DNA from: a virus
IMG/VR virus record: IMGVR_UViG_3300018481_000019
Span: 29,818 to 93,817 of that record
Reading direction: 5' to 3' (one strand)
Length of the DNA stretch: 64,000 bases
The notes beneath the pieces were generated by a model that made no database searches, had not been told where the DNA came from, and was given only the letters and a program-made list of their open reading frames with translations. Both the position numbers and the translations under genes were made by a program. Below, piece by piece: positions 1,875 to 29,943 of this stretch (its first letter is position 1; each line of letters begins with the position of its first letter).

Positions 1875-2311
1875 GCTATTGGCTGCGTTTTGAAAACCAC
1901 CGTGAGCCGGTCGAAGTTGCCAGTGGATACGGTTTCAAGGCACCGAAATCGTGGGGCCGGATGCTCCGAATGGAGGAAGCAGATGATGTATCTGGTGGCG
2001 ATTGCTGCCCCGATTTGGAAAACGATCCCCTGGCGGACCTAGAGCGCCAGCTTCAGGATGAAGAATCCAAGCTCTCGGAGTTGATTGGCTCTACCGCCGA
2101 GATTCAAAAGGAAATCGGGAGGTACGACATCAGGATTCTCACTGCCAGTGGGAAGGACCGGCGGGCCATGCTCGCCAGCGCACGGTTTTTGAAAGTCCAA
2201 CAATTGCACGACATGGAAGCCCGGAACCAGACAGAGATAGACCGTCAGCGAGCAAGGGTCGCCAGTTTGCGAAGGCTACGATCCGAGAAGAGAAAGGACT
2301 TGTCGAAATGA
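1871..2311 (+). CDS. Hypothetical coiled-coil protein
   Basis: ATGA-coupled to genes on both sides; heptad-like charged sequence. Confidence 0.55.
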   Translation: MSYWLRFENHREPVEVASGYGFKAPKSWGRMLRMEEADDVSGGDCCPDLENDPLADLERQLQDEESKLSELIGSTAEIQKEIGRYDIRILTASGKDRRAMLASARFLKVQQLHDMEARNQTEIDRQRARVASLRRLRSEKRKDLSK

Positions 2312-3225
2312 CCGATCTAGCTGGCGAACTTCTGCCAGACGGTGTGTATGAGGGCTATGCCGAATGGGGCATGGTGCGGGAGGACATCGGCGCGATTCTG
2401 GCGGCGGGGTTCCCGGTCAAGCCACCGAAGCAGTGGTTTGAGAATCCCAATTTCATGCGTCTCTCGCCATTGACCGTGGAAGGCTCGGGACAAGTGATGG
2501 GCCACGTCGCATCGTGGAAGCAGTCGCACATCGGCATGAGTGGATCGGTGCGCGCCCCCAAGTCGAAGTCGAAGTACGCCTTTTTTAAGACCGGCGTGGT
2601 GGAGACGGACGATGGTTCGTTCCAAGACGTAGGGCAGATCACTCTCACCGGGGGTCACGCCCCATTGGACGCGACCACCGCCGATGCCGTAGCCCACTAC
2701 GACAACACCGACTCCGCCGTGATGGACGTGAATGTCGGTGAGGATCGGTTCGGAATCTGGGTTGCCGGAGCGCTCCGTCCCAACGTTGACGAGACGAAGC
2801 TGCGAACGATTCGGGCTTCCTCCGTCTCCGGCGACTGGCGACCGATCAACGGTGGCTTGGAACTAGTCGCGGTGTGCGCGGTCAACGTTCCCGGCATTCC
2901 GATCCCCCGAGCCAAGATCGCATCGGGTGTCCCGATTGCCCTGGTTGCCGCCGGAGTGGAGCCGTTGGTCGATCTGGCTCTGGAAGAGAATCTCGGCCTC
3001 AGCATTGATGAAGAGATTCGGGCGGGGCTGAATGAGGTCTACGACCGTCTGGAAGCCATTGAGTCCAGGCCGGACATCACCATGACCGCCGCAGAGCGAC
3101 GTGACGCTATCTCTCAGGCGATCAATGACACCGCCACGGACAGAGAGGCTCGGGCCGAGTCACTCCGTAGGAACGTCCACAGGGACGCTTACGCCGCTTC
3201 TCTGCGGAGCCGAGTCCATTCGTGA
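2308..3225 (+). CDS. Capsid maturation (prohead) protease, actinophage type
   Basis: Motifs PP..WF..P, GHVA.W..HIG, AHYDNT...V.DV.VGED.FGIWVAG, SGDWR...G.LELVAV.AVNVPG.P typical of mycobacteriophage cluster-B-like proteases. Confidence 0.75.
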   Translation: MTDLAGELLPDGVYEGYAEWGMVREDIGAILAAGFPVKPPKQWFENPNFMRLSPLTVEGSGQVMGHVASWKQSHIGMSGSVRAPKSKSKYAFFKTGVVETDDGSFQDVGQITLTGGHAPLDATTADAVAHYDNTDSAVMDVNVGEDRFGIWVAGALRPNVDETKLRTIRASSVSGDWRPINGGLELVAVCAVNVPGIPIPRAKIASGVPIALVAAGVEPLVDLALEENLGLSIDEEIRAGLNEVYDRLEAIESRPDITMTAAERRDAISQAINDTATDREARAESLRRNVHRDAYAASLRSRVHS

Positions 3226-6179
3226 CCCAGAATCGGGCCAGGGCGGTGCCAAGCACCGCTCTGGTCGCTGCTCGCTCATGGGAAGCCGAGCTTCACCCGC
3301 GGGGCCGGGATGGGAAGTTCATCGAAAAGCTCGGCATGGTCAAGCTCTTCGACTTCGTCCATCCCCGCTCTAAGGAACAGATTTCAGAATCGACCGGCGT
3401 AGTCAAGAACATCTTTGGCGGCGACCGCATCATGGTGGAACTACCCGATGGGGTGACGGTCCCGGTCAAGTCCAACCAGATCGAATCGCTTGGCGAGAAG
3501 GCACGACTCACCCTGTATCGGGGTGAAGGCGATCTGGACAATCCGTCGTACTACACGCCGGAGTCAGGGGAAGCAGGGGGATGGTGGACGAGCGACCGTG
3601 ATGCGGCAGACCGATACGCCAAGGGTGTTCCTGGGGGGAAGGTCTACGAAATCGAAGTCGAAGGGTCAGAGGTAGAGCCAAGGGGTGCTCATTACTTCAT
3701 CTCTGACCCGACGGTTCGATCAAGGCGACGATTGACCGACTCCGGCGCTCTTTACCAAAACGAGAATTTCCTAGACACCGTCAAGCAAGTCGATGCCGCC
3801 GAATTCCACAAGGGATTCGCTGAAGCTCGCCAGGGTCGGTACGGAGCCTTCCTTAGTGATTTCGATGAAAGCCACTTCGCTCAGGAAAATGTCGATGTCT
3901 ACTCGGCGTTCGACGGGAAGGTGGGTGCGGCTCTCACTCGCCATGAGGACGGTCGAGTTGAAATCGGTTCCCTCTATGCCTTGGAGGGAGCGCCACCTAA
4001 AGCCGGGATCGACCTACTCCGATATTTACTGGACGAAAAAGGGGTCAATTGGCTCAACAACTTCGATGGGCCACTGACCGATATGTACGAAGCGAACGGG
4101 TTCAAGGTCGATACCTCTGATCCCTGGAACGAAGAGTATGCGCCGGATGGATGGGACTATGAGCGGTTTGACAATCCCGCATACATTACAATGTCCCGTA
4201 AAATGGAAAGACCTGTAAGGGGAGCAGCAAGTGGTAGAAGCATTGACACCGGAACAACTGGAACAGATTCGGACGAGTCTCTACGCCAAGACCGAAGCAC
4301 GGCTCGGCAAGGAATGGGTCGCGTCCCACCAAGAGTTGATGGACGAGCAGTTTCAGATGATGCAGGACTACGGGCTTCTGGACGAAGTCCTCTTGGAGCC
4401 GACGCTCTAACAGCATCGGTCAGAGTGGAGGCGATGCGCGCCTTCGTTCACAATCCGCACACGGTCTTGGTGTCTTTCACCGCCGCTGACTGGAACCCCG
4501 ACCTTCACCCGAGAGGTCACGACGGCAAGTTCATTGAGACGCTTGGCCTGATTCATCTCATTGATATGGCGGGCTTTCGCCACGGTCAGAGGGGCGACAA
4601 GCGGGTCCAGGGTCAAGTCCAAGAAATCATCCCCGACCCTGACGACCCCGGCAACCCGATCATTCGGGTGAAAATGACCGATCCCCGATGGGACGCTTCT
4701 GCATTCGGGGAGACATTCGATGCTCGGAGCTACCAAGTCTCGGCTCGGGAACCGGGCAAAGCGACGATTCCAAAAGAGCCAGTTGTCGATCTAGCGGGCG
4801 AACTGTTGCCTGACGAGCCTCCGTCAGTTACCCCCATAGCGACCGACCTTGTCCCGTCGATCACCGAATCCGACATCGGGGTTGGAATGGCTCTGGCTCC
4901 AATGGCGAAGCCTGGTGGGTGGGACGGGTTGTCGCCAGCGGCAAAGCAATCGTGGATCACGGATCAGATGCAGGCGGACCTCAGTGCGTTTCGGGGAGCG
5001 CCCACAGTTTTCAATTTGGAAAGCACTGATCCTGAAGTCGCATTCAATCTCGCCAACCGATACCGGGAGCTAACCGGCATCGACACGCCGACCGCGCTGT
5101 GGGTCGATGGGGTTGTCACCAACGCATCGGCTCATTTGATGAACGACGAATTGGTCAAGCCGACTTCAGCGATTGCCGTGGCCCATCCCGGCACCAAGCA
5201 CCCTGGCGGCATTGGCCCGATCACGAACCGCAAGGCCATAGTTTTGAATCAAGTTCACTTCCAAGACGACAAGACGTGGGCCAAAGAGAAGGCCATGAGT
5301 TCTGGCGGGTCGTTTCCCTGGTCGGTCGGCTCTACCCAAGGCGATTACACGGCGACGATGGTGCATGAGTTCGGACACCACCGGCAGTTCCGGTATCTGG
5401 CGGAGACGATGCTGGAAGCTGGTCAGCCGTTTTCAAAAGTGAGACATGCCGACGGTTTCGGCCTCATGCCGGATTCTTCTAATTGGCCCGAAGTCCAGGC
5501 GGCCCGGTATGAGATTCAAAAACTGGCTCCCTCTCAGTACGGGTTGAGCAAGTCTTCAGAGGCATTCGCTGAAGTGTGGGCCGGAGTTGTTACCGGCTAC
5601 GTCCCGATTTCACCTGAATTGCAATCTGCGTGGGACTCATGGCATCTCGGAATGGACATTCCCGGTCAGATGCCGCCGACTCGGTACACCCCCGACGAGC
5701 TTGTCGATTATGGATCACTCGCTCCCGAAGAGCTAGATGCGTATTGGGCTGAGGCTTCTGCCCTTTTGGAATTGCCGGGAATGCGTGAGCACTACCCCCA
5801 AACCGCTGCGCTCTACGACTCATGGGCCGCTGGAACGGTCTACGCCGAGTCCGACTTCGGGGAGCCGATTGAGTTCCCGAGCGAGAGCTTGGAACTTGAA
5901 CCAGCGTTGATGCAGGCTCGGTCGGTTCAGGAAATCAAGGCCACCAATTTTTCGGAAGTCGAATCCTTCATACGAGAAGCAGAGAAGACACAGGGCGGCG
6001 CGTGGTCGTTCTTCCCGACATTCGGCTCGGTAGACATAGTGCGAGCAGCAACACCGTCTCAAATTCCTGATGATTATTACAGCCCATCAAGTAACCGAAT
6101 TTTCTACAAGGGCAAGTGGCAGACTTTCACCCCGGCAGCAATTATCCGAGAGCAGAACAGAGGGATGGGGTCCGATTGA
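3222..6179 (+). CDS. Polyvalent virion effector protein: HPR module + ART-like domain + GNAT-like domain + second HPR module + zincin metallopeptidase
   Basis: Two LHPRG.DGKFIE motifs; LYRGE...GWWTSD...A..YA...VYE (ADP-ribosyltransferase-like, ~3510-3720); IGSLY...WLNNFD..LTDMYEANGF...WNEEYAPDGWDY (GNAT-like, ~3790-4195); VHEFGH (5364-5378) followed by SQYG...SEAFAE (zincin). Confidence 0.7.
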   Translation: MTQNRARAVPSTALVAARSWEAELHPRGRDGKFIEKLGMVKLFDFVHPRSKEQISESTGVVKNIFGGDRIMVELPDGVTVPVKSNQIESLGEKARLTLYRGEGDLDNPSYYTPESGEAGGWWTSDRDAADRYAKGVPGGKVYEIEVEGSEVEPRGAHYFISDPTVRSRRRLTDSGALYQNENFLDTVKQVDAAEFHKGFAEARQGRYGAFLSDFDESHFAQENVDVYSAFDGKVGAALTRHEDGRVEIGSLYALEGAPPKAGIDLLRYLLDEKGVNWLNNFDGPLTDMYEANGFKVDTSDPWNEEYAPDGWDYERFDNPAYITMSRKMERPVRGAASGRSIDTGTTGTDSDESLRQDRSTARQGMGRVPPRVDGRAVSDDAGLRASGRSPLGADALTASVRVEAMRAFVHNPHTVLVSFTAADWNPDLHPRGHDGKFIETLGLIHLIDMAGFRHGQRGDKRVQGQVQEIIPDPDDPGNPIIRVKMTDPRWDASAFGETFDARSYQVSAREPGKATIPKEPVVDLAGELLPDEPPSVTPIATDLVPSITESDIGVGMALAPMAKPGGWDGLSPAAKQSWITDQMQADLSAFRGAPTVFNLESTDPEVAFNLANRYRELTGIDTPTALWVDGVVTNASAHLMNDELVKPTSAIAVAHPGTKHPGGIGPITNRKAIVLNQVHFQDDKTWAKEKAMSSGGSFPWSVGSTQGDYTATMVHEFGHHRQFRYLAETMLEAGQPFSKVRHADGFGLMPDSSNWPEVQAARYEIQKLAPSQYGLSKSSEAFAEVWAGVVTGYVPISPELQSAWDSWHLGMDIPGQMPPTRYTPDELVDYGSLAPEELDAYWAEASALLELPGMREHYPQTAALYDSWAAGTVYAESDFGEPIEFPSESLELEPALMQARSVQEIKATNFSEVESFIREAEKTQGGAWSFFPTFGSVDIVRAATPSQIPDDYYSPSSNRIFYKGKWQTFTPAAIIREQNRGMGSD
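4231..4410 (+). CDS. Nested +1-frame 59-aa helical acidic protein, candidate immunity protein
   Basis: AAGGGGAG SD at 4217-4224, GTG 4231, TAA 4408-4410; MVEALTPEQLEQIRTSLYAKTEARLGKEWVASHQELMDEQFQMMQDYGLLDEVLLEPTL; the host frame here is low-complexity linker. Confidence 0.6.
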   Translation: MVEALTPEQLEQIRTSLYAKTEARLGKEWVASHQELMDEQFQMMQDYGLLDEVLLEPTL

Positions 6180-19344: not shown

Positions 19345-20004
19345 TCACAGCAACCTACTTTCTACCTTGACCGATATCTGCCATGCCACACCGTTTTCGT
19401 CCACTGCAATCCGAGCGCCCTCTTGGGTTCGGGCGACAATTTTCAATCCGGTCCCTTCCTCCAAAGCCGAGTCGGGAATCGCGTTGGCGAGTTCGGGATT
19501 GATCGCTGGCGAGTCCTTGGGATTCGGGTTGTAGTAATAGACCCCTGGTGAAAGTCGCTCGACGTGAGGGTCGTCACGAACAAGGGCGACCAAGCTGGAA
19601 CTGATCTGCTTCCGAGTCAGCGTCATTTCAAATTGCTCGACCAGCTTGTTTGAAATGGCCTCAGTGGTGATGGGCTTGCCTTCGTTCCGAAGTATGGAAA
19701 CGACCTTGCCCTTCTGACCCGAGACTCGGTTGGTCACTGCGGTCACGTCTCCGGTATCGGATTCCAAATTGTCGGGCCGATAGGCGTACTCGCCGGGAGC
19801 AATCCGAATGATGCCGGTGTTCTCTCGGTCGCCCCGCAATTGAGAGAGGGTCGCTGAAATGCTGGTCGGCGGAGTCGTCTCTAGTTGCGGCTTCGCTTGC
19901 AAGTCCCGCATCGTCACGCCTTCTGGCGCGGCCTCTTCCACCAACCGCTTGATGGTGGTGACAAGAGACTCGCCTTGCCGCTGCTCTCGGTCTAGGTCTG
20001 TCAC
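19345..20004 (-). CDS. Tandem winged-helix DNA-binding protein
   Basis: Two repeats ending ISATLSQL...RIAPGEY and ISSSLVAL...RLSPGVY. Confidence 0.65.
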   Translation of the reverse strand: MTDLDREQRQGESLVTTIKRLVEEAAPEGVTMRDLQAKPQLETTPPTSISATLSQLRGDRENTGIIRIAPGEYAYRPDNLESDTGDVTAVTNRVSGQKGKVVSILRNEGKPITTEAISNKLVEQFEMTLTRKQISSSLVALVRDDPHVERLSPGVYYYNPNPKDSPAINPELANAIPDSALEEGTGLKIVARTQEGARIAVDENGVAWQISVKVESRLL

Positions 20005-21207
20005 TGATTCCTCCTGAATAGCTCTTCGTGAAGCAAGCCACGATGGTCGTTAGCTCCCTCCACCTTGTAGTTGCCGTCGTAGCGATACTGCCGGGACACC
20101 ATGCGGTAGCTGTATTCATTCCGTCCGTAACCGACGACGCATAAGTCGATGCGCTGAGTTTTGCATCGCTGGCAAGTGAGCACCCGAGCCGCATCGGGAT
20201 TCCAGGGGTGCCGTCTTGCTCTAGCTCGTAGATCGGTGTCAGCTTTGGCGACCGGCCCAACGTAACTCACCATCCAGGCGTGGCCGATAGTGCGGCATTC
20301 CAGAAAGGCTTCGTCGTACTCGGTGAGCCGACGGGCAACGTCAACGATTTCCTGCTCGTAGCTTGTCTCGGTCGTCAAATGTCTTGGCCTTCCGTCTAGG
20401 TGCGACAATCTAGTCCGTTGAAATCTCTTTGGCGACTGATGTGCTGCGTGCGAGCTTGTCAGTGTGAATGAGCCGCACGCCCAAGTTTTCACAAGGTCGC
20501 ATTGGGTGGTCACGGAGCTTGCCGCCGCAAGAGGCACAGCGAATGATTCCGAGTCCTTTGAAATTGTGATCGCCGTAATGCTCATTGCGCTCGCCGTTCC
20601 GTTTGATCTTGTTGTTAGGCATTACTCGGGACCGAACCCGACTAGATGCCGGAGCACGTCACCAAAGCGGGCCTCATGCAATAGGCGACGACCATTTAAT
20701 TCGCCGCAGGCGCACTCTTCGATCTTGATGGAGATTCCGTAGTTGTGGTCCGAGTCATTGAACGTCCCGGCGAATTGGTCCCACTCGTCCTCACGAAGAT
20801 CGCTCCACTTCACGACCGAGCAGAGTTCATCCTCAGTCCCGCCGGGACGTAGGTGGTAGGTGGCCTCAAAGTCGTATGGCCCCCCGTAGTAGCCAGTGCG
20901 AGTGTCAATGTCGTCTCCGAGTGTCACCCATCCCCGCTCAATGACGTACTGCGCGACCGCGTCTTTGAATTGGTCTTGCCAAGTAGTTGTTGGCTTCTCC
21001 AATCCGTCAGCAAGTGCTTCCATCGCCCAATCGCTCATTCTTCCTCTTCTCCGGCAGGCTCGCCCTCACCGTCAGCGTGACGAGCGAGATGCCGTTCGAT
21101 TGCCTGCTCAAAGGTGGCAATCACTGTCCCGTTGGTCGAGTCCGGTGTTGTCCGGTGCGTCCCGTCGGGATAGTGAAGCCACTCGTCTCTCGGTGTTACG
21201 TTGGTCA

Positions 21208-23298
21208 TTAGTACCTTCCCCGCTTGCTGGTGAATGCTTTGTCGAGAGCCTTGGAGATTTCATTCACCAAGACCATCGGGATTTCGTCTTTGCTCAGATG
21301 CCGCCAGTTGATTTCTACGCCCTCTGTGTTCTCAATCGACCGCTTCCGCTGATCGACCCACACAATCGCAACCCCGGCCTTGGCGAACTTGTCCATCCAG
21401 ATCGCCCGACGCTCTGGCTCAAAGGTGTTGACCAACTCGTTATCCGAGATGATTACGAGCACCTTGGCTGCGTCCGGTGTGCTGGTCAGTCCGAGTGCTC
21501 CGTCCAGAGCCGCCATTGCGATGTCGAACTCTTCGACTCCACCGTTGGCAGTCCGCTCCCGAACTTCGGATGGAACCTCACCAGGCTTTAACACCGCTTC
21601 GATGTAGGAGCCGAACGTGACCGCTGCGGTCTTGGCATTGATACGGTGGCCCGCCTTGCCCACGATGTAGGCGGCGCTGGCAACCATTCCCTGCGCCCAG
21701 GACATTGAGCCGGAAGTGTCGGTGGCGATTCCCACGACTGCCGGTGGGCCGAAAGCGTGCTTCCGCTTTTTGTCCACCCAAGGCTTCGCCGTGGTCATGC
21801 GACCCTGCGCCCGCTCCGCCGAGCGCCGTACTGCTTCCCGGCTCTTCAACCGTCCGGTGGGAATGTCGGTCAGAATCTTGGTGCCAGCGATGGTGGGAAC
21901 CATCATCGTCTCCAAGTGATTCGCCAGCTTGTTCGATGCCGCCACTTCCTGTGGAGTCGGCTTCCGCACGTTCCATGAGTGACCGTCGTAGTTCTGGTTT
22001 TTTTCAAAAACGTCTTTGACCGCCTTTCGCTGATCGGCAACGTCCATCATCGGAGTCTCGGTCAGCTTGTCGCTCTCGACCAGTTCGACAATGGCCTTGC
22101 GAAACGATGCCATGCCGTCGTCGGTGGCAACCGAAGTCTCGCCTTCGACTTCGACAACCGGCAGATCGTCAACGTCGGTGAATTCGCCTTCGCCCTCACC
22201 AGGCTCGTCCTCAGACTTGCCCTCACCGGCCTTGTCGGGCTTGCCCTTACCAGGCTTGTCGCCCTCACCCGTATCGTCGCCGTCGCCGTCGCCGTCGCCT
22301 TCGCCCTCTTCGCCGTCGTCGTCGCCCTCACCATCGGAGCCTTCACCGTCGGCCTCTTCGTCGTCGGACTCGTCGTCGGACTCGCCGCCGGAGCCTTCGC
22401 CCTTCTCGGACTTTTCCTTTTTGGTCTTGTGGCTGCAACCGCCTTCACCGTCGCCGCTGCCCCCATCATCACTCTTGATGTCCAGGGCTTCGTTCCACTG
22501 AACCGCCAGTTCGACCAGTCGATCAAACCCGTCGGTTCGGTGAGCGTCGGTTGCCATTGCTTCGTCGTAGATGTCGCTCAGTTCGTCCATCAGATCGTCG
22601 CCAAGGTGCGCCCTCAGTGCGTTGTCGATGGGAGCGAACTCTTCTGCCGTCAGCGTGCCAGCGGCAGTCCTCCCCTTGACCAGCGCCCAAACCGCCATTG
22701 CGTGACCCAAGCTCTCGTATTTCTCCGGTGTGTCAGCGAGCAGGATTTGGGCAATGGCCCTCAGATATTCCTTGACCCTGAATTTGGGTTGCTGCGGGTT
22801 GTGAGCATCGACCACCCGTTTTTCGATACGCCCTTCCTCAAAGATCATCAGTGTGTTGATGATTGCCGCCGGAGCCTTGAAATCTGCGCTCGCCCAATCC
22901 GAGTGCTTGGAGTGACCGCCCTCATGGAGCAGCAATCCGGCGAGCGCCTTGCGAACCCGGTTCACTTTCTTGGTTCCCTCATGGCTTCCGGCGTGCCGTG
23001 CCTTTTGAGAAACCCACCGTTCCAAGCCCGCCGCCGCGTTGACCAACTCAGTGTCGGTCGCACCGCTGGCTTTCAAAAACTCCCCGACGTGGAGGGTGAT
23101 GTCGGCGTATCCCGGCGTGTACCAACCCATCGCCGGAGCAGGACCGTCATTGGCATCGACCTTGACCAAGACCCCCCTGGAATCCGAGCGGACTCCCAAG
23201 GAATGCAGGGTTTCGTTCAGGCTGCTTTGCAGTGCCGTCCGCTGTGGGTCGGTGATGATGGGCGGCTTGACCGCTGTGGTGGTCATTCCGCCCTCCAA
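21208..23298 (-). CDS. CobT-like VWA-domain protein with N-terminal HExxH and acidic linker
   Basis: LLHEGGH...EEGRIE; D/E/G-rich linker; MIDAS DTSGSMS, later GG.E and IISD. Confidence 0.8.
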   Translation of the reverse strand: MEGGMTTTAVKPPIITDPQRTALQSSLNETLHSLGVRSDSRGVLVKVDANDGPAPAMGWYTPGYADITLHVGEFLKASGATDTELVNAAAGLERWVSQKARHAGSHEGTKKVNRVRKALAGLLLHEGGHSKHSDWASADFKAPAAIINTLMIFEEGRIEKRVVDAHNPQQPKFRVKEYLRAIAQILLADTPEKYESLGHAMAVWALVKGRTAAGTLTAEEFAPIDNALRAHLGDDLMDELSDIYDEAMATDAHRTDGFDRLVELAVQWNEALDIKSDDGGSGDGEGGCSHKTKKEKSEKGEGSGGESDDESDDEEADGEGSDGEGDDDGEEGEGDGDGDGDDTGEGDKPGKGKPDKAGEGKSEDEPGEGEGEFTDVDDLPVVEVEGETSVATDDGMASFRKAIVELVESDKLTETPMMDVADQRKAVKDVFEKNQNYDGHSWNVRKPTPQEVAASNKLANHLETMMVPTIAGTKILTDIPTGRLKSREAVRRSAERAQGRMTTAKPWVDKKRKHAFGPPAVVGIATDTSGSMSWAQGMVASAAYIVGKAGHRINAKTAAVTFGSYIEAVLKPGEVPSEVRERTANGGVEEFDIAMAALDGALGLTSTPDAAKVLVIISDNELVNTFEPERRAIWMDKFAKAGVAIVWVDQRKRSIENTEGVEINWRHLSKDEIPMVLVNEISKALDKAFTSKRGRY

Positions 23299-23750
23299 GT
23301 CTCGTCGTCAATCTTGCCGAACAGCCGGTTGTTCCGGGTGCCGCCGTCGTAGCGAGCGGTCGGCTTCTGCTTGGAGGCGATTGCCTCAATGTCGGACTCG
23401 GTCAACTGCACCAGTGTCGGGGTTCCCCGCATGACCGCTCCGATCTTGTCGGACTCGGACGATGCGATCAGCTTCCGCACTTGCTCTCGGGCATCGGCGT
23501 GGCTGAGGAAGGCGTACTCGGACCACCTTGCCTTTTTGCTGCCCCGCTCCCGCTGGTAGAGATAGACGTTGGGTCCGGTGAGGAACACTTGCACTTGGCT
23601 GTGAATTTGTTTTGAATCACGGTAGAACCGGACGTACTCGACGTGAAGCCCGTAGGCATCGACTCCGTCGTGTCGGTCGATTCTCTCCGCTTTGATTACT
23701 TTGGTTTCTGTGGTCATGGGCATCGCCCCTTTCTTGTCTTTGTCTGTCAC
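23283..23750 (-). CDS. Hypothetical protein between the AAA and VWA genes
   Basis: Own promoter and SD (AGAAAGGGG) before ATG ~23723. Confidence 0.55.
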   Translation of the reverse strand: MTDKDKKGAMPMTTETKVIKAERIDRHDGVDAYGLHVEYVRFYRDSKQIHSQVQVFLTGPNVYLYQRERGSKKARWSEYAFLSHADAREQVRKLIASSESDKIGAVMRGTPTLVQLTESDIEAIASKQKPTARYDGGTRNNRLFGKIDDETWRAE

Positions 23751-23784
23751 TCAGGATTATAGCGGGGTGTAATCGCTATGCAAG
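23748..23784 (-). promoter_or_regulatory. SigA-type promoter
   Basis: TTGCAT-N17-TATAAT-CCTGAGTG. Confidence 0.75.
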
Positions 23785-23799
23785 TCCACCCCGCTCGTC

Positions 23800-24789
23800 T
23801 CAGAAGGTCAGAACCTTGGGAGACTTCCCGAACACCGACTTGATCGCCTCTTCGACGTATACCCGATCTTCGGGCCGACTCATGGAGACGAAGTTCTCCA
23901 AGGCGACATCTTCACCGAATGTCTCTTCGATGTTTTTGAAAGCGATCACTTCCCGCAACTGTGGCGGAGCAGAGACGATTCCCGACTCGGCCTTCTTGCC
24001 CAAGTTCCGTGCCACTTCCACGATGTTCGCTGGAACACCGAGCTTGGCTGCGATCTTCCAATCGGTCTGCATCTCGACGTGGACTGCGAACCGGCTCAGA
24101 AGGGCTTCCGACATCACCGCTCCCGGCACGTTCGGGTTGGTCGCTCCGAACACCAAGAACCCAGGCTTGGCAGAAACCTTGCCCCGGTCAGGGTTTGCCG
24201 TGACCGAGATTTCGTTTCGCCCGTCCATCAGTGAGTAGACCACCGACAATTGCCGTGGGTCGATCAGCGCAATCTCGTCAATGAGCAGAGGCCAACCGTT
24301 GTCGGCTGCGACCAGCGCCGGACCATCGACCCAAAGGTAGGTGCCGTCGGGCTGCTGGACGTAAGAGCCGATGAAGTCCGCTGCTTCCGTCTCAATGGAG
24401 CCGAGCACCGTGACGACGTTATCCAGAGCCGCTTCGACCAAGGCGGTCTTGCCGGTTCCGGGCGGGCCGTAGAGCAGGAGGCTCAGTCCCTTGTCGTAGC
24501 TCGTCTCCACAAAGGCCACGTCCTGAAACGTGGAGTCGCCCACCTTGACCGTTCTCGGCAAGTACGCCTCACCGTTGGGCCGCTGGTAGGACTTGTGCAG
24601 TGGCTTGATTGCCTTGACCGACTCGACGGCGGGTGCCGACGGCTCGGTTTTGCCAGAAACGAATTCCTTCCCTGGCACGTATGTTTTGAGTAGATCAGCG
24701 TCGAATCGTTTCAGCGCCGAGTCTGTTTCCAAGAGAACACTCATTGGCTCACTTCCTTTCTTTGTTGCCGTTGTTGTTTCCACAGTCAC
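23800..24789 (-). CDS. MoxR/CobS/CbbQ-like AAA+ ATPase
   Basis: LLYGPPGTGKT, WVDGP, LIDEI, ATNP, EALLSRF. Confidence 0.85.
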   Translation of the reverse strand: MTVETTTATKKGSEPMSVLLETDSALKRFDADLLKTYVPGKEFVSGKTEPSAPAVESVKAIKPLHKSYQRPNGEAYLPRTVKVGDSTFQDVAFVETSYDKGLSLLLYGPPGTGKTALVEAALDNVVTVLGSIETEAADFIGSYVQQPDGTYLWVDGPALVAADNGWPLLIDEIALIDPRQLSVVYSLMDGRNEISVTANPDRGKVSAKPGFLVFGATNPNVPGAVMSEALLSRFAVHVEMQTDWKIAAKLGVPANIVEVARNLGKKAESGIVSAPPQLREVIAFKNIEETFGEDVALENFVSMSRPEDRVYVEEAIKSVFGKSPKVLTF

Positions 24790-24819
24790 GATTATAGCGC
24801 CGTGAAATTGGAATGCAAA
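24786..24819 (-). promoter_or_regulatory. SigA-type promoter
   Basis: TTGCAT-N17-TATAAT. Confidence 0.7.
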
Positions 24820-25812
24820 TCGTAGATGCCACTGGCTTCCGCTTCATCAGCGCCGCGCATGGCTTCGTCCATCTCCCGCTCCCATTTCTGACCCTCCGCC
24901 GATTCGTCGCGGTGCATCTCGGCGGCGACCATCATGGCTTCCAGGGGAGTCGAGAAGGTTCCAATTTCCCGGTCCCAAGGGTCAATGTAGGAACCGCCCC
25001 ACTCGCTGAGATGGAAGTCTCCGGTGTCGGTGTCGTGATCGACTCGGAAGGTGCCTCCCGAGTAGTTGCTTTCAAAGGCGACCCAACCGAAGTCGCCGGG
25101 ACCGAGCGTGTGGATATTGATGTCCTCAGTCCAATGGAGTCCAAAGTGCTTTCGTTTCTCGGTCATATCAGCCTCCTAGCCAGTGAGCCGCGGGACTCTT
25201 TGAGGAACCAGGCAATCCACTCTTTCTGTTTCTCGGCCTCTTCCGCCAGACGACCTCCTGTGCCGTACACGTCGCCTTGCAGTCGGGTGTAGAACGCTTT
25301 GATCGGACGGAGCGCCTTGTCGATTTCGGCTTCCGTGACATCGACTGGCTCCCACCGATCAACGCTTGTGAGAAGAGTTTGGAGATTCTTCGCTGCGTTC
25401 GATGGGACGTTCCATACATGCCACCCGTCGCTGTTCCGATTGGTGAAGGCGGCAAGCCGGTCGAGAACCATCGCACCGTCGTAGAGATTTGGAGTCTCGG
25501 GATTTTTGAATCGACGTAGAGCCTCTTCGATGTCCCACTCATTCATCCAACTCATATCAATTTCGCCCTCTCTGCCAGCAACTTGTCTACGGCAACCTTG
25601 CGGGATTTGATTGCTCCGTTGGTCGGGCCTTGCCAATCACCGATGGTCAGTGAGTACGTCCAGGGCCAGCCGGTCAGTCGGGGAGTCGGGTTCTTTCCGA
25701 CCACGCCTAGCTCTTCGCCGGTATCCCCGTCTGTCACGACGTAGGTGTTGCCACCGAAGTTGTGGAGTTTGATGTTCATAGGCGGACCTCCTGTCCTGTC
25801 TGTGTCTTGTCT

Positions 25813-25851
25813 GTCACTCAGAATTATAGCGTCCTGAAATTGCAATGCAAA
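25813..25851 (-). promoter_or_regulatory. SigA-type promoter
   Basis: TTGCAT-N17-TATAAT-TCTGAGTGACAGACA. Confidence 0.75.
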
Positions 25852-25852
25852 C

Positions 25853-26329
25853 TCAGGACGCTACTTTCCAAAAGTCCGGTGGGACTGCGAGCCTGCGTGG
25901 AGCAAGCGCTCCCCGATGGGCATTCCAGAGGATTGCCCCGATTCGTCCGTTGCCGTCAGCGAACGGATGAATCTCTTGGAACCGCTTGTACCACTCGTCG
26001 GCGCTCAGGGTGTCCCAAGCATCGACCAGCAATTCGATCTGCCGGGGAACCTCCCGCCAGGAAACTCCCCTTTCAAATCTGTCACCGACCACGACATCGC
26101 GATTGCGATAGCCGATGGGGTCATTGGTGCGTGGCTCCACGATGCTCGCCAGTTTTTGAATCTTCTCGACTGTGGGCGGGAGCACAACATCGCTCCACTT
26201 CTCCCAATCAATGAACTCGTCGTAGGCGTAGCCCCAACCGGCGACCAACCAGGCGACCGACATCTCGCCGCTCTTCTGGCGCTCGCACTCGGCAGCGGCC
26301 CATTCGACAACGTCTTTCCATGCGTTCAT
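25853..26329 (-). CDS. Fic/Doc-family protein
   Basis: Fic motif HPFADGNGRIG; upstream GYRNRDVVVG. Confidence 0.85.
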   Translation of the reverse strand: MNAWKDVVEWAAAECERQKSGEMSVAWLVAGWGYAYDEFIDWEKWSDVVLPPTVEKIQKLASIVEPRTNDPIGYRNRDVVVGDRFERGVSWREVPRQIELLVDAWDTLSADEWYKRFQEIHPFADGNGRIGAILWNAHRGALAPRRLAVPPDFWKVAS

Positions 26330-27300
26330 GTTTTCTCCCTTACGATTTGCCACGCCTCATATTCGATGGTGATTGGTTCGTCGGCGGCGAGAAAGTGCCG
26401 CATCAAATCTCGGGCGGGTCGATGATCGACCGCTATCCAAACCTTCGTGGCCCCGAGCAGATCATCTTCGATGCCCCGGTTGATTTCAAAAGTCCAGATG
26501 GTGCCGTGATCTTCGTACTTCCCGGTGAGTTCTCCGGCGAATGTCATGGTCACAATCCCTCCCGATCTGCGTATTCGACTTCCTCTTGGGTGTGCTCCAA
26601 GTCCCACGGACCCCAATGCCCGTAGGTGACGCAATTCAAAAACGCTTCCTGCGGTTCGTAGATCACGACTTCGTCCGGGTCGATTTTCCCGAGCTTGTAA
26701 TACATGACCTTGGGCATGGTGACTTCCCTGCCGTTCGATGGGTCGATCACAACCGGGATTGAAAAGCCGTCAATCTCTTCTGCGGTTTCGACCCAGGCGT
26801 GGATGAACCTCATGCCTTCGATGTCACCCTGCCCTGTCGGGTAGCCGTGGACGATCTGATAGCTGTCCTGCTCTTCCTTGGGCTTGTCCATGACGAACTT
26901 CACCGCTGCGTCGAAGCAGTCGCCGCCGGTAGCCATTACCTCAGTCCCATTTCGTACAAGCACGATTCGCACGTCGGCAAGTCGGTGACTTCGGCGTACC
27001 GTGGGTCGGCAACTTCGTTGCATGGTGAGTAGCCGTAGGCCACATCGCTCACTGCGTTGCGCTCGCAATACTCAACGGGCGGCAGCTTCCAGACAACACC
27101 AGGGCTGCGCCAAGGTGGGGTGCTCATTTGCCCTGCAATTCGTAGGTGACGACCAGCAAAGCAGCCATAGCTTCCCGAGCCTCACGGACCTTGCCGGTCT
27201 TGGTGCATTCGGTCCACTGGCGAACCAGGGCTTCCCGCTTGGTTCTGAGTTCCATTATCTGTCTTGATGTCATGGGCATCATCCCTTTCTCTTGTCTGTG

Positions 27301-27338
27301 TCACTCACAATTATAGCGTCGTGAAATTAGATTGCAAA
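27301..27338 (-). promoter_or_regulatory. SigA-type promoter
   Basis: TTGCAA-N17-TATAAT-TGTGAGTG. Confidence 0.7.
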
Positions 27339-27772
27339 TCCTTCGGGGGCGGACGGCGGCTTCTCGCCAGTCTCCGGGTGCTCTTTGGTGATGGTTCCCC
27401 AAGGGACGTAGAACGATTCCTCCGTTCCGTCGAGCACGACCAGTTTGTTGCGGCTCCCCTGTGTCGCGGTGATGAAGGTGGCGGAAGCGGTCACGCCCTC
27501 ATAAGTGACGAATATCCGGTCGCCCCTCCTGCACGTCGGGCCGAACTCAGGAATGGTGGTGGTGGTCAAGCGAACGCTCCGGCAGGGGCGAACGTGGGGA
27601 ACGACCGGCTCGCGGCGGAGGCAACGGCCCGGACACAAGAGACGCAGACGGTGACGACTGCTCCCCATCCGGTAGATGTTCGTGCGGTTTTGACTGTCTC
27701 AGTCGGTGGTTTGGGAGTGGCGCACTCGGCGCAAGTGGCTTCGCTCATGGCGGTCCTTTCTCTTGGGGGGAA

Positions 27773-27810
27773 CACTCAGAATTATAGCTTGGTGTAATTG
27801 CTATGCAATT
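27773..27810 (-). promoter_or_regulatory. SigA-type promoter
   Basis: TTGCAT-N17-TATAAT-TCTGAGTG. Confidence 0.75.
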
Positions 27811-27858
27811 CTGATTAGTGGAAAATTTCCCACTCTTGGTAAGGACCGTTTTGAGAAC

Positions 27859-27903
27859 GAAGAAACCCCCCGGAGGTTGGCAGACCAGGCGGGGGGTTTC
27901 TTC
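27859..27903 (-). terminator. Terminator-like hairpin
   Basis: GAAGAAACCCCCCG...CGGGGGGTTTCTTC. Confidence 0.6.
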
Positions 27904-29943
27904 CGTCGTGCGTCGAGAGGTTAGCCGGTTTCGGCGGGCTTGCGCTCTCGGAGTGCTTCGATGTGTGAGATTGCGATTTGCTCGGCAGTGACTTGCTTCA
28001 CTTCTCCGTAGCGATAGAGCCACGCCTCCTGAGCCGCTTCCTTCCACTCTTCCTTGTAGATGGATAGAATGTCGAGCAGATGGTCAAGGTCGAGTGCCGC
28101 CGTCTCTCGGTACTTGTCACGGAAGTAGTTCTGTTCCTCCCACCGACCCTTACCAAACCGTCTGTCGAAGCAATCCTTCGCCAGCGCTTCGATCAGCTTT
28201 TCACGAAGCTCGCTCATAGTGCATCTCCATCTCGGTCAAGTCGATTTCGTGGTCGTGACCCTGGCAGACCCAACGGTCGTGGGTGCCGCCGTCCTCAGTG
28301 ATTTTCCAGCATGTGTTGTTGTCTTCGCTCATGTCTTCTCTCTTTCTTTTTGAAAACCGCCCACTATGGGAATGGGCGTTCCGTCTCTGGATTTGACCCG
28401 AGACAAGTGATACTCCCCGCACTGGTCACAGACGTAGCTATGGAGTAGCCACCCATGTTCCTCCTGTTTTCGGAGGCGGGCCTGTTCCGCCATGTGCTCG
28501 GTGGGGTAGTGATTCTTGGTTCTGCATGACTGCGTTCTGAATCTTGGCGGTATCAAGAGCAACCTCATTTCAGAGAACTTTCATTTCGTGAGTCAACACA
28601 ATCGGTCGGTATGTCACTTTGTAGTGGGTGTGGTGTTCTCGGCAGTCTCCATCGCAAAGTCTTTCGACTGACTTGTAAGCGAGATTCCCGTCCGATGCAA
28701 GGTTGAGAACCATTGCGTAATTCTGAGCATGGTCTTCGTCAAAGAACTCAGCGATGGGACATTCGCCCTCCGTGGTGTTGTGCTCGGACATCGGCTTGTC
28801 GTGAAGCGTCACGACCCACCCACCGATCAGATCATTGGATTGGGCGTAGTAGGTCACTCTTCCTCCAAGGTGAGCTTCACCGTCTCACCGGGAACGAGAG
28901 GGCGCATCACCGCCACCGGAACCCCGGCGTGATAGATGATGAACGACTCCCCGGCTTTGAGCCGGTCCATGTATTCCTTGCCCTTGCGTGAGAGCAGGGA
29001 CCAATTGGCGTAGGTGAGGTTCATTCCTCTTCACCGCCTCCGCCGGTCACGGCATTGATCGCGTCGATCATGGCATCAACCCGAGCCACATCATCGGCAT
29101 TGAGAGTTTGCAGGGAAGTGAATATCGGCATCCCGTTGATTCCTCTCGGACCCGCCTTGTGCATCCATTCAAAAATCATGCCGTGCGACCCGCCCTCTTC
29201 GGTCGGCTCCAAGAGCTTGACCAAGTCGTCAATGGCGGGCTTGTCCATGAAGGCGAGCGGCATGAACACCATCGTCATTAGATTCGGGTCAGGAAGCATC
29301 CGGTCACAGAACACCGAGCCGGACATCAGGCCGAGAGCGATGTCACGGATTGACTTGTCGCTTTTTGAAACGTAGGTCATTCGTGCCACGCTTCCTTGAT
29401 CTTGCTCCAAGCGTTCTCCATCGCTCGTCCGACCGCCGTGTCACGGCGACTCGGCGCTGTGATTTGCTCGTAGGTGTCGGTCTGCCAATGGCTGATCGCT
29501 TCACCAAGAGCTTTGAACTGTGGCTCGGTCAGAGTGATGGTGATGGTCCGCTGCTTGCGTCGAGTCGGTGGTGCAATTTTCATGGCACGACCCTGTCGAA
29601 TTCCTCTGGCAGTTCCAGAACCAAGTATCTCTTTAGAGCGTTTCTCTTGTTCGGCTCATAGTCGAGCACGTCCCATTCCCAACCGCCGTGCTCGTCCTTG
29701 AAGTCGATGGTCTTCTCCCCGACGACTTGACCGCCAAGGCTCTCGGCCACGGCGACGATGTCGAAGATGGTGGTGGGTCGTCCGTAGAACATGGCATCGG
29801 CTTCGACACCGGCTCGCAGTTCGTGGATAGTTTTGACTGTGTCTTTCGGTTTCATAGGTGCCTCTCTTTGATTAGGTATCTCAATCCGGCTCCGAGATGT
29901 GCGAGCAGATGCCACACACCACGGACCAAGTCTCGGAGGAATT

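Follow-up and report, generated by a model that had tools for sequence, protein, structure and literature searches.

A small gene in the +1 frame within a giant polyvalent effector gene of a 93.8-kb virus genome

Complete small genes lying in a shifted frame within longer phage genes have been described, a well-known case being lambda Rz1 inside Rz (PMC6139136). Herein, a similar arrangement is reported for a virus genome from IMG/VR (record IMGVR_UViG_3300018481_000019, 93.8 kb). The window analysed, a 64,000-nucleotide (nt) part of this genome (positions 29,818 to 93,817 of the record), carries a 59-codon open reading frame (ORF) in the +1 frame inside a giant ORF of 985 codons, which joins two parts, here called gene A and gene B. 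Coordinates are those of the window unless given as genome positions, and frame 0 denotes the frame of the giant ORF. As with the embedded spanins, the small gene is known both in nested form and, to judge from its homologue, in separated form, and an origin by loss of an upstream stop is discussed for that family (PMC6139136). A passage from separated to embedded spanin genes through such stop loss was proposed by Kongari et al. (2018; PMC6139136), and the part of the host protein that covers the overlap was found to be disorder-prone. Unlike the embedded spanins, the host gene here encodes a multi-enzyme virion effector, its frame carries no coding adaptation over the overlap, the partners are unrelated to lysis, and dual translation is predicted from sequence alone.

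The giant ORF in turn resembles the polyvalent proteins (Iyer et al., 2017; PMC5512222), since ART-like, GNAT and zincin metallopeptidase domains are gathered in one ORF of a head module, and since cargo domains are shuffled between relatives. The vicinity of ART to GNAT was itself remarked upon in that study, whereas neither genes nested in linkers nor immunity partners are described there. MuF toxins provide a further point of comparison, since 89% of their genes have a small ORF behind them (Jamet et al., 2017; PMC5576092). In the window, a small ORF likewise follows the effector domain, and the same GNAT-like domain is C-terminal in three proteins (P0003, P0005 and P0006) whose N-terminal part was read by eye as MuF-like. 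Unlike in the MuF systems, the small ORF lies inside a continuing ORF and not past a stop, and gene A carries an HPRG tag, not MuF.

A GNAT-fold enzyme beside a gene for a small helical protein also recalls the toxin-antitoxin pairs TacT/TacA and AtaT/AtaR. There, the antitoxin is encoded ahead of the toxin and contains an RHH/DUF1778 domain, whereas a Pfam search gave no RHH/DUF1778 match here. On a thin evidence base of one homologue, the locus appears to combine known kinds of arrangement, namely embedded phage genes, polyvalent proteins and effector/partner pairs.

The nested +1 gene and its coding signal

The elements on which the argument turns are the following.

3222 to 6179, plus strand: giant ORF of 985 codons (P0001), frame 0, stop-free throughout
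3222 to 4205, plus strand: gene A part, with HPRG tag, ART-like block and GNAT-fold domain
4206 to 4433, plus strand: frame-0 linker, R/G/S/D-rich, about 70 residues, without stop and without coding signature
4217 to 4224, plus strand: Shine-Dalgarno (SD)-like AAGGGGAG, with a 6-nt spacer before the GTG at 4231
4231 to 4410, plus strand: nested small gene (P0002), +1 frame, GTG start, 59 codons plus TAA (4408 to 4410)
4434 to 6179, plus strand: gene B, with HPRG tag (motif from 4506), HEFGH metallopeptidase and C-terminal domain

A first-pass annotation of this DNA, made from the letters alone, had pointed to AAGGGGAG, a GTG 6 nt later and a 59-codon +1-frame ORF directly after a GNAT-like domain, and these sequence facts proved exact. 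The ORF is complete and lies wholly within 3222 to 6179, on the same strand and in the other frame. The +1 frame is open from stop to stop over 4219 to 4410 and is closed upstream by a TAA at 4216 to 4218, while the GTG at 4231 is placed 26 nt past the last conserved residue of the GNAT domain, that is, a small ORF stands immediately downstream of the putative toxin domain. SD-like 5-mers precede 9% of the ORF starts of this genome against a background of 4% (about twofold enrichment), and RNA structure in the start region is not above that of shuffled sequence (z +1.28).

Codon usage was scored with a log-odds table that contrasts in-frame with off-frame codons of 58 other long ORFs in this genome. 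Over 4231 to 4407, the +1 frame reaches 0.479 log-odds per codon, a value attained by none of 4,092 off-frame 59-codon windows of the genome's long ORFs (mean -0.51/-0.54, standard deviation 0.27) and higher than 83% of true in-frame windows of that length, whose mean is 0.334. Frame 0 over the same interval scores -0.246 per codon, below 2,045 of 2,046 true in-frame windows. Along the giant ORF, frame 0 is positive everywhere except at 4180 to 4420, where the +1 frame turns positive, and the relation is reversed again after 4420. The +1 frame is thus the adapted coding frame of this interval. The first-pass annotation had also held that the main frame gives way to an R/G/S/D-rich linker over the nested ORF and then resumes, which is borne out by the low frame-0 score, by an R+G+S content of 43% (genome mean 22%; top 1.1% of windows) and by the recovery after 4420. 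When the long ORFs of the 93.8-kb genome were all scanned, 13 other stretches were flagged, each of them either within about 100 codons of an ORF start or in a short ORF of 200 to 290 codons. These were taken, without being checked individually, as start overlaps or false ORFs; by that reading, 4231 to 4410 is the sole internal switch of the genome with main-frame coding on both sides, which speaks against an assembly full of frameshifts.

The predicted product also agrees with its earlier description as acidic and protein-like. Its isoelectric point (pI) is 4.2, compared with 4.9 for gene A, 4.8 for gene B and 9.3 for the frame-0 linker, its codon score is that given above, and an AlphaFold2 (AF2) model built from two sequences folds it into a compact helical bundle (predicted local distance difference test, pLDDT, 89; predicted TM-score, pTM, 0.71). 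A HMMER search of 1.84 billion representative proteins returned a single match, P0009, a protein of 80 amino acids (aa) from a Joint Genome Institute (JGI) metagenome contig of 2,202 bp, with 67% identity over residues 2 to 56 (E 1.1e-14). The Met (ATG) of P0009 aligns with the GTG at 4231. The fact that P0009 was called as a separate gene makes it probably free-standing, because gene callers skip ORFs buried in longer ones. P0009 is thus probably a separate homologue of the kind that the first-pass annotation had asked about. Among 50,697 phage records, tblastn with the peptide as query gave no match. Protein-coding selection on the nested frame is indicated by the codon score, the homologue, the confident fold and one variant that is synonymous in +1 (see below), and the +1 ORF is a genuine small-protein gene.

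Other searches for relatives of the small protein returned nothing usable. Viral contigs gave no match whether queried with the peptide or its alignment, with gene A or with the GNAT alignment, the metagenome scan gave only a spurious PrmC match (L002), and the genome scans gave none for the GNAT-like domain and one spurious off-frame match (L010). No longer proteins containing the peptide were found, the ESM Atlas held no usable match for it, and the PADLOC defence library had none. Foldseek with the peptide model retrieved nothing below E 6, and the Tsi6 match at E 6.9 can be disregarded. An attempt to recover the end of a GNAT domain from the residues upstream in P0009 by degenerate back-translation was not significant, only ATGA at the start being certain.

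The continuity of frame 0 was examined in public sequence data. A 151-nt Logan contig (X2) from a different run and study covers 4131 to 4278 with two differences and no gaps, spanning an A4 run (4200 to 4203), a G4 run (4219 to 4222), the end of the GNAT domain and the start of the small gene, and frame 0 is continuous. The matching public runs each share at most 23% of sampled words and are consequently unlikely to be the source sample. The listed X2 difference, T>C at 4243, leaves Leu as Leu in the +1 frame and changes Ile to Thr in frame 0, and all 16 differences listed for the neighbouring stretches of genes A and B fall on frame-0 third positions. Under synonymous recoding of the 59 codons according to genome codon usage, frame 0 is expected to contain 2.5 stops, whereas none is observed, and 5.1% of 20,000 recoded versions kept the frame open; among off-frame 72-codon windows in real genes, 9 to 12% are open. 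The frame-0 score in the overlap is about 1 to 1.1 standard deviations above the off-frame mean. With P about 0.05 for a stretch free of stops, the open state of frame 0 is only weakly non-random.

Gene B, its relatives and the cassette

Three further features define the surroundings of the small gene.

2308 to 3225, plus strand: 305-aa head-module gene, with PHROG matches to head maturation protease / portal
3762 to about 4205, plus strand: GNAT-fold domain, residues 181 to about 328 of the giant ORF, identified by AF2 model and Foldseek
4425 to 4436, plus strand: candidate own starts of gene B, GTG at 4425 and ATG at 4434

The upstream domain had been described as GNAT-like from sequence, and this fold was confirmed: the AF2 model has a pLDDT of 85, and its top Foldseek matches in the PDB are all acetyltransferases (E down to 1.5e-6, TM about 0.63), while Pfam gave no match on residues 181 to about 328. 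In four homologues the GNAT-like domain forms the protein C-terminus. P0003, P0005 and P0006 end three residues past ...YVEMxK, equivalent to about 4205 to 4210 of the window, and gp117 of Haloarcula tailed virus 2 (HATV-2), which consists of the GNAT-like domain alone, ends 15 nt beyond the match. The closest homologue of the domain, P0004 (330 aa, on a Logan contig of 4,213 bp), likewise lacks a stop at the domain end and continues for about 100 residues that are R/G/P-rich and resemble an off-frame reading; this tail may conceal another nested gene. As a homologue of the frame-0 linker, the P0004 tail was not significant (P 0.18).

Gene B is found as a gene in its own right elsewhere. Its homologues P0011 to P0015 are free-standing proteins, 58 to 78% identical to the second half of the giant ORF, and begin V/M...VRVEALRAFVH...DWNPDLHPRG, equivalent to 4407 to 4434 of the window, which reads ...VRVEAMRAFVH where gene B of the relatives starts. 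The start of P0013 is the Met equivalent to the ATG at 4434. Within the window, a GGAGG at 4427 to 4431 lies only 2 nt before this ATG, and the equivalent of the P0011 start codon is CTA (4407 to 4409), which overlaps the TAA of the small gene. Gene B may depend partly on read-through or on re-initiation after the small gene. The HEFGH zincin block is kept in 20+ homologues.

Seven IMG/VR contigs (L003 to L009) share the order of a 623-aa gene, a 146-aa gene, the 305-aa gene and gene B. Those with sequence past gene B (L003 to L007) continue with a 153-aa gene, and L003 and L004 also with a 211-aa gene. The 305-aa gene serves as the left anchor of synteny; in the window its TGA stop and the GTG start of gene A share bases (GTGA), and in all seven relatives it abuts gene B directly. 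In L003 to L009, tblastn detected neither the GNAT-like domain nor the peptide. Since gene A and the small gene are both missing from these syntenic relatives, the interval from 3222 to about 4410 is a 1.2-kb cassette in this virus, and the cassette is an insertion. The peptide and the GNAT-like domain are thus both present here and both absent in the seven relatives, and HATV-2 gp117 has no small neighbour. These comparisons uphold the earlier view that the layout arose by joining of modules, gene B having a start of its own in the relatives, and they reverse the order proposed: no second effector was fused on behind, but a cassette of gene A and the small gene was placed before a resident gene B. 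A direct repeat GGAGCCGA at 3206 and 4395 was considered as an insertion scar and was not significant (P 0.19).

Explanations for the nesting

The explanation that is probably right is that a real small gene arrived together with gene A as a cassette, and that gene A, being stopless, reads through into gene B. Gene A and the small gene would have entered the virus as a unit of about 1.2 kb between the head gene and gene B, and a point change or small indel would have removed the stop of gene A from a separated layout, creating the nesting. The giant ORF exists because gene A has no in-frame stop. Ribosomes translating gene A would then traverse the small gene one base out of step, producing about 70 residues of unselected R/G/S/D linker, and would continue in frame into gene B to yield a 985-residue polyvalent virion effector. 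With its SD-like site and GTG retained, the small gene could be expressed by internal initiation, so that both products would be made. From its position and its joint presence and absence with gene A, the 59-aa protein is a candidate cognate partner of the ART/GNAT effector, be it an inhibitor, an antidote or a chaperone, a role that fits the rule of small ORFs following MuF toxin genes (PMC5576092); an immunity role in particular is suggested by position.

Several results weigh against this account. Homologue support consists of P0009. The one solo GNAT-like homologue with readable DNA, HATV-2 gp117, has no small partner gene behind it, and no family, fold or defence-library match points to a function of the small protein. 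The Pfam family DUF5663 scored 18.4 bits against P0002, below its gathering threshold of 23.7, and 13.4 bits against P0009, both proteins aligning from profile position 8. No RNA runs are among the matching public runs listed. Frame 0 could also be open by accident, with the small gene perhaps silenced by ribosome traffic; on weak evidence, accidental loss of the stop of gene A explains the open frame 0 as well as selection does.

The alternatives differ in how they treat the open frame 0 and the fate of the small gene. That the nesting is kept by selection as a built-in antidote, the small protein being an immunity protein or inhibitor of the GNAT or ART-like domain that is always co-expressed with it, is rather unlikely. 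It would account for a small ORF with an SD-like site directly behind effector domains, for the joint presence of gene A and the small gene here and their joint absence in seven relatives, for the lack of stops in frame 0 where 2.5 are expected (P 0.05), and for the small ORFs behind 89% of MuF toxin genes (PMC5576092). It is opposed by the want of any immunity-family, defence-library or fold match, by a frame 0 without adaptation, by a sole homologue called as a free-standing gene, by the HATV-2 solo GNAT-like gene without such a neighbour, by the still putative toxicity of the GNAT or ART-like domain here, and by the polyvalent-protein paper, in which immunity proteins have 0 occurrences (PMC5512222). 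A wider claim, that selection has repeatedly led phage polyvalent effector genes to carry a small cognate-partner gene in the +1 frame of the linker following an enzyme domain, is likewise doubtful; under that claim the DNA of the partner, an inhibitor or chaperone, might double as a flexible spacer, the partner being made from an internal start, and the window might be a young instance, with a free-standing homologue and cassette-free relatives still in existence. Less probable still is a fossil, in which the fusion is recent, the small gene is silent, and its coding signature and the open frame have yet to decay. Such a state would suit a frame 0 that has no signature of its own and is open by chance with P 0.05 to 0.12, as well as the finding of this arrangement in two samples only, which are nearly identical here. 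Elongating ribosomes tend to occlude internal start sites, which would also favour silence. Against a fossil speak the intact ORF, which has its start, SD-like site and stop, the one observed variant, which is synonymous in the +1 frame, and a start region whose structure does not exceed that of shuffled sequence.

An error of assembly or sequencing was also considered, in which gene A would end near 4216 or 4235 and three ordinary genes would follow one another. Stops do lie just past the GNAT domain (TAA at 4216 in frame +1, TAG at 4235 in frame +2), homologues of the domain end here, the window is a metagenome-assembled contig, and the A4 and G4 runs at 4200 to 4203 and 4219 to 4222 would be plausible sites of an indel. 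A contig of a different run and study crosses 4131 to 4278 without gaps, however, and by the reading of the scan given above the 93.8-kb genome contains no other internal frame switch, which leaves this explanation very improbable. Almost no credence can be given to a programmed +1 frameshift by which the peptide would become a C-terminal extension of gene A, stimulated by the SD-like element in the manner of prfB. AAGGGGAG does stand just ahead of the frame change, but 4219 to 4233 is free of slippery and stalling codons, the homologue P0009 has an ATG where the window has its GTG, and no longer protein containing the peptide was found.

The preferred account, a stopless gene A carrying a small gene with it, has consequences for annotation and for the origin of nested genes. 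Gene finders drop ORFs inside longer ORFs, and the annotation of this virus therefore lacks a real protein. Provided that both products are made, the locus illustrates how the loss of a stop codon can, in a single step, place one gene inside another, with the separated homologue and the cassette-free relatives still available for comparison. If it is true that the small protein controls the ART/GNAT effector, polyvalent virion proteins would be linked to the toxin/immunity logic of polymorphic toxins.

Effector modules and genome context

Two modules precede the GNAT-fold domain in gene A.

Motif from 3294, plus strand: N-terminal tag module of gene A, WxxxLHPRGxDGKF, the HPRG tag
3498 to 3731, plus strand: ART-like block, residues 93 to 170, sharing 65% identity with the cargo at the C-terminus of P0013, a gene-B homologue

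The domain order of the giant ORF, whose product is identical to database protein P0010, is accordingly tag, ART-like block, GNAT domain, R/G/S/D linker, second HPRG tag, HEFGH metallopeptidase and C-terminal domain. Several unrelated effector domains are thereby held in one polypeptide in a head neighbourhood, the neighbouring genes matching head PHROGs, as is the case for polyvalent proteins. The head genes are closest to those of actinobacteriophages (Gordonia, Microbacterium, Arthrobacter), and the median protein pI of the genome is 5.25; a reading of the genome as a haloarchaeal virus was dropped on these two grounds.

A further ORF of this genome and the distant gene-B relatives P0019, P0020, P0024 and P0034 likewise contain internal HPRG modules, so that the fusion of A and B is architecturally normal. 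Upstream of the window, at genome positions 19975 to 28893, two more giant ORFs, measuring 839 and 2,138 codons from stop to stop, also bear HPRG tags, and one tag is internal (residue 229); a codon-score scan of these two ORFs showed no nested frame switch. The C-terminal cargo behind the metallopeptidase varies among P0011 to P0016 and P0028 and includes a classical GNAT (JGI annotation), an ART-like block, a second HExxH block (P0015) and helical tails, a mosaic typical of polyvalent proteins. The ART-like cargo (residues 544 to 622 of P0013) lies upstream of the metallopeptidase here and downstream of it in P0013, which belongs to another virus.

At the DNA level, the tag of gene A (3286 to 3326) is identical at 40 of 41 positions to genome positions 20655 to 20695, the tag of another polyprotein gene, with unrelated flanks, and at 31 of 41 to the tag of gene B. 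The near-identity of the tag, together with the ART-like block common to P0013, indicates that modules move between these genes. In two unrelated public runs, short contigs match only those 41 tag nt, and this tag DNA looks like a handle for recombination or gene conversion.

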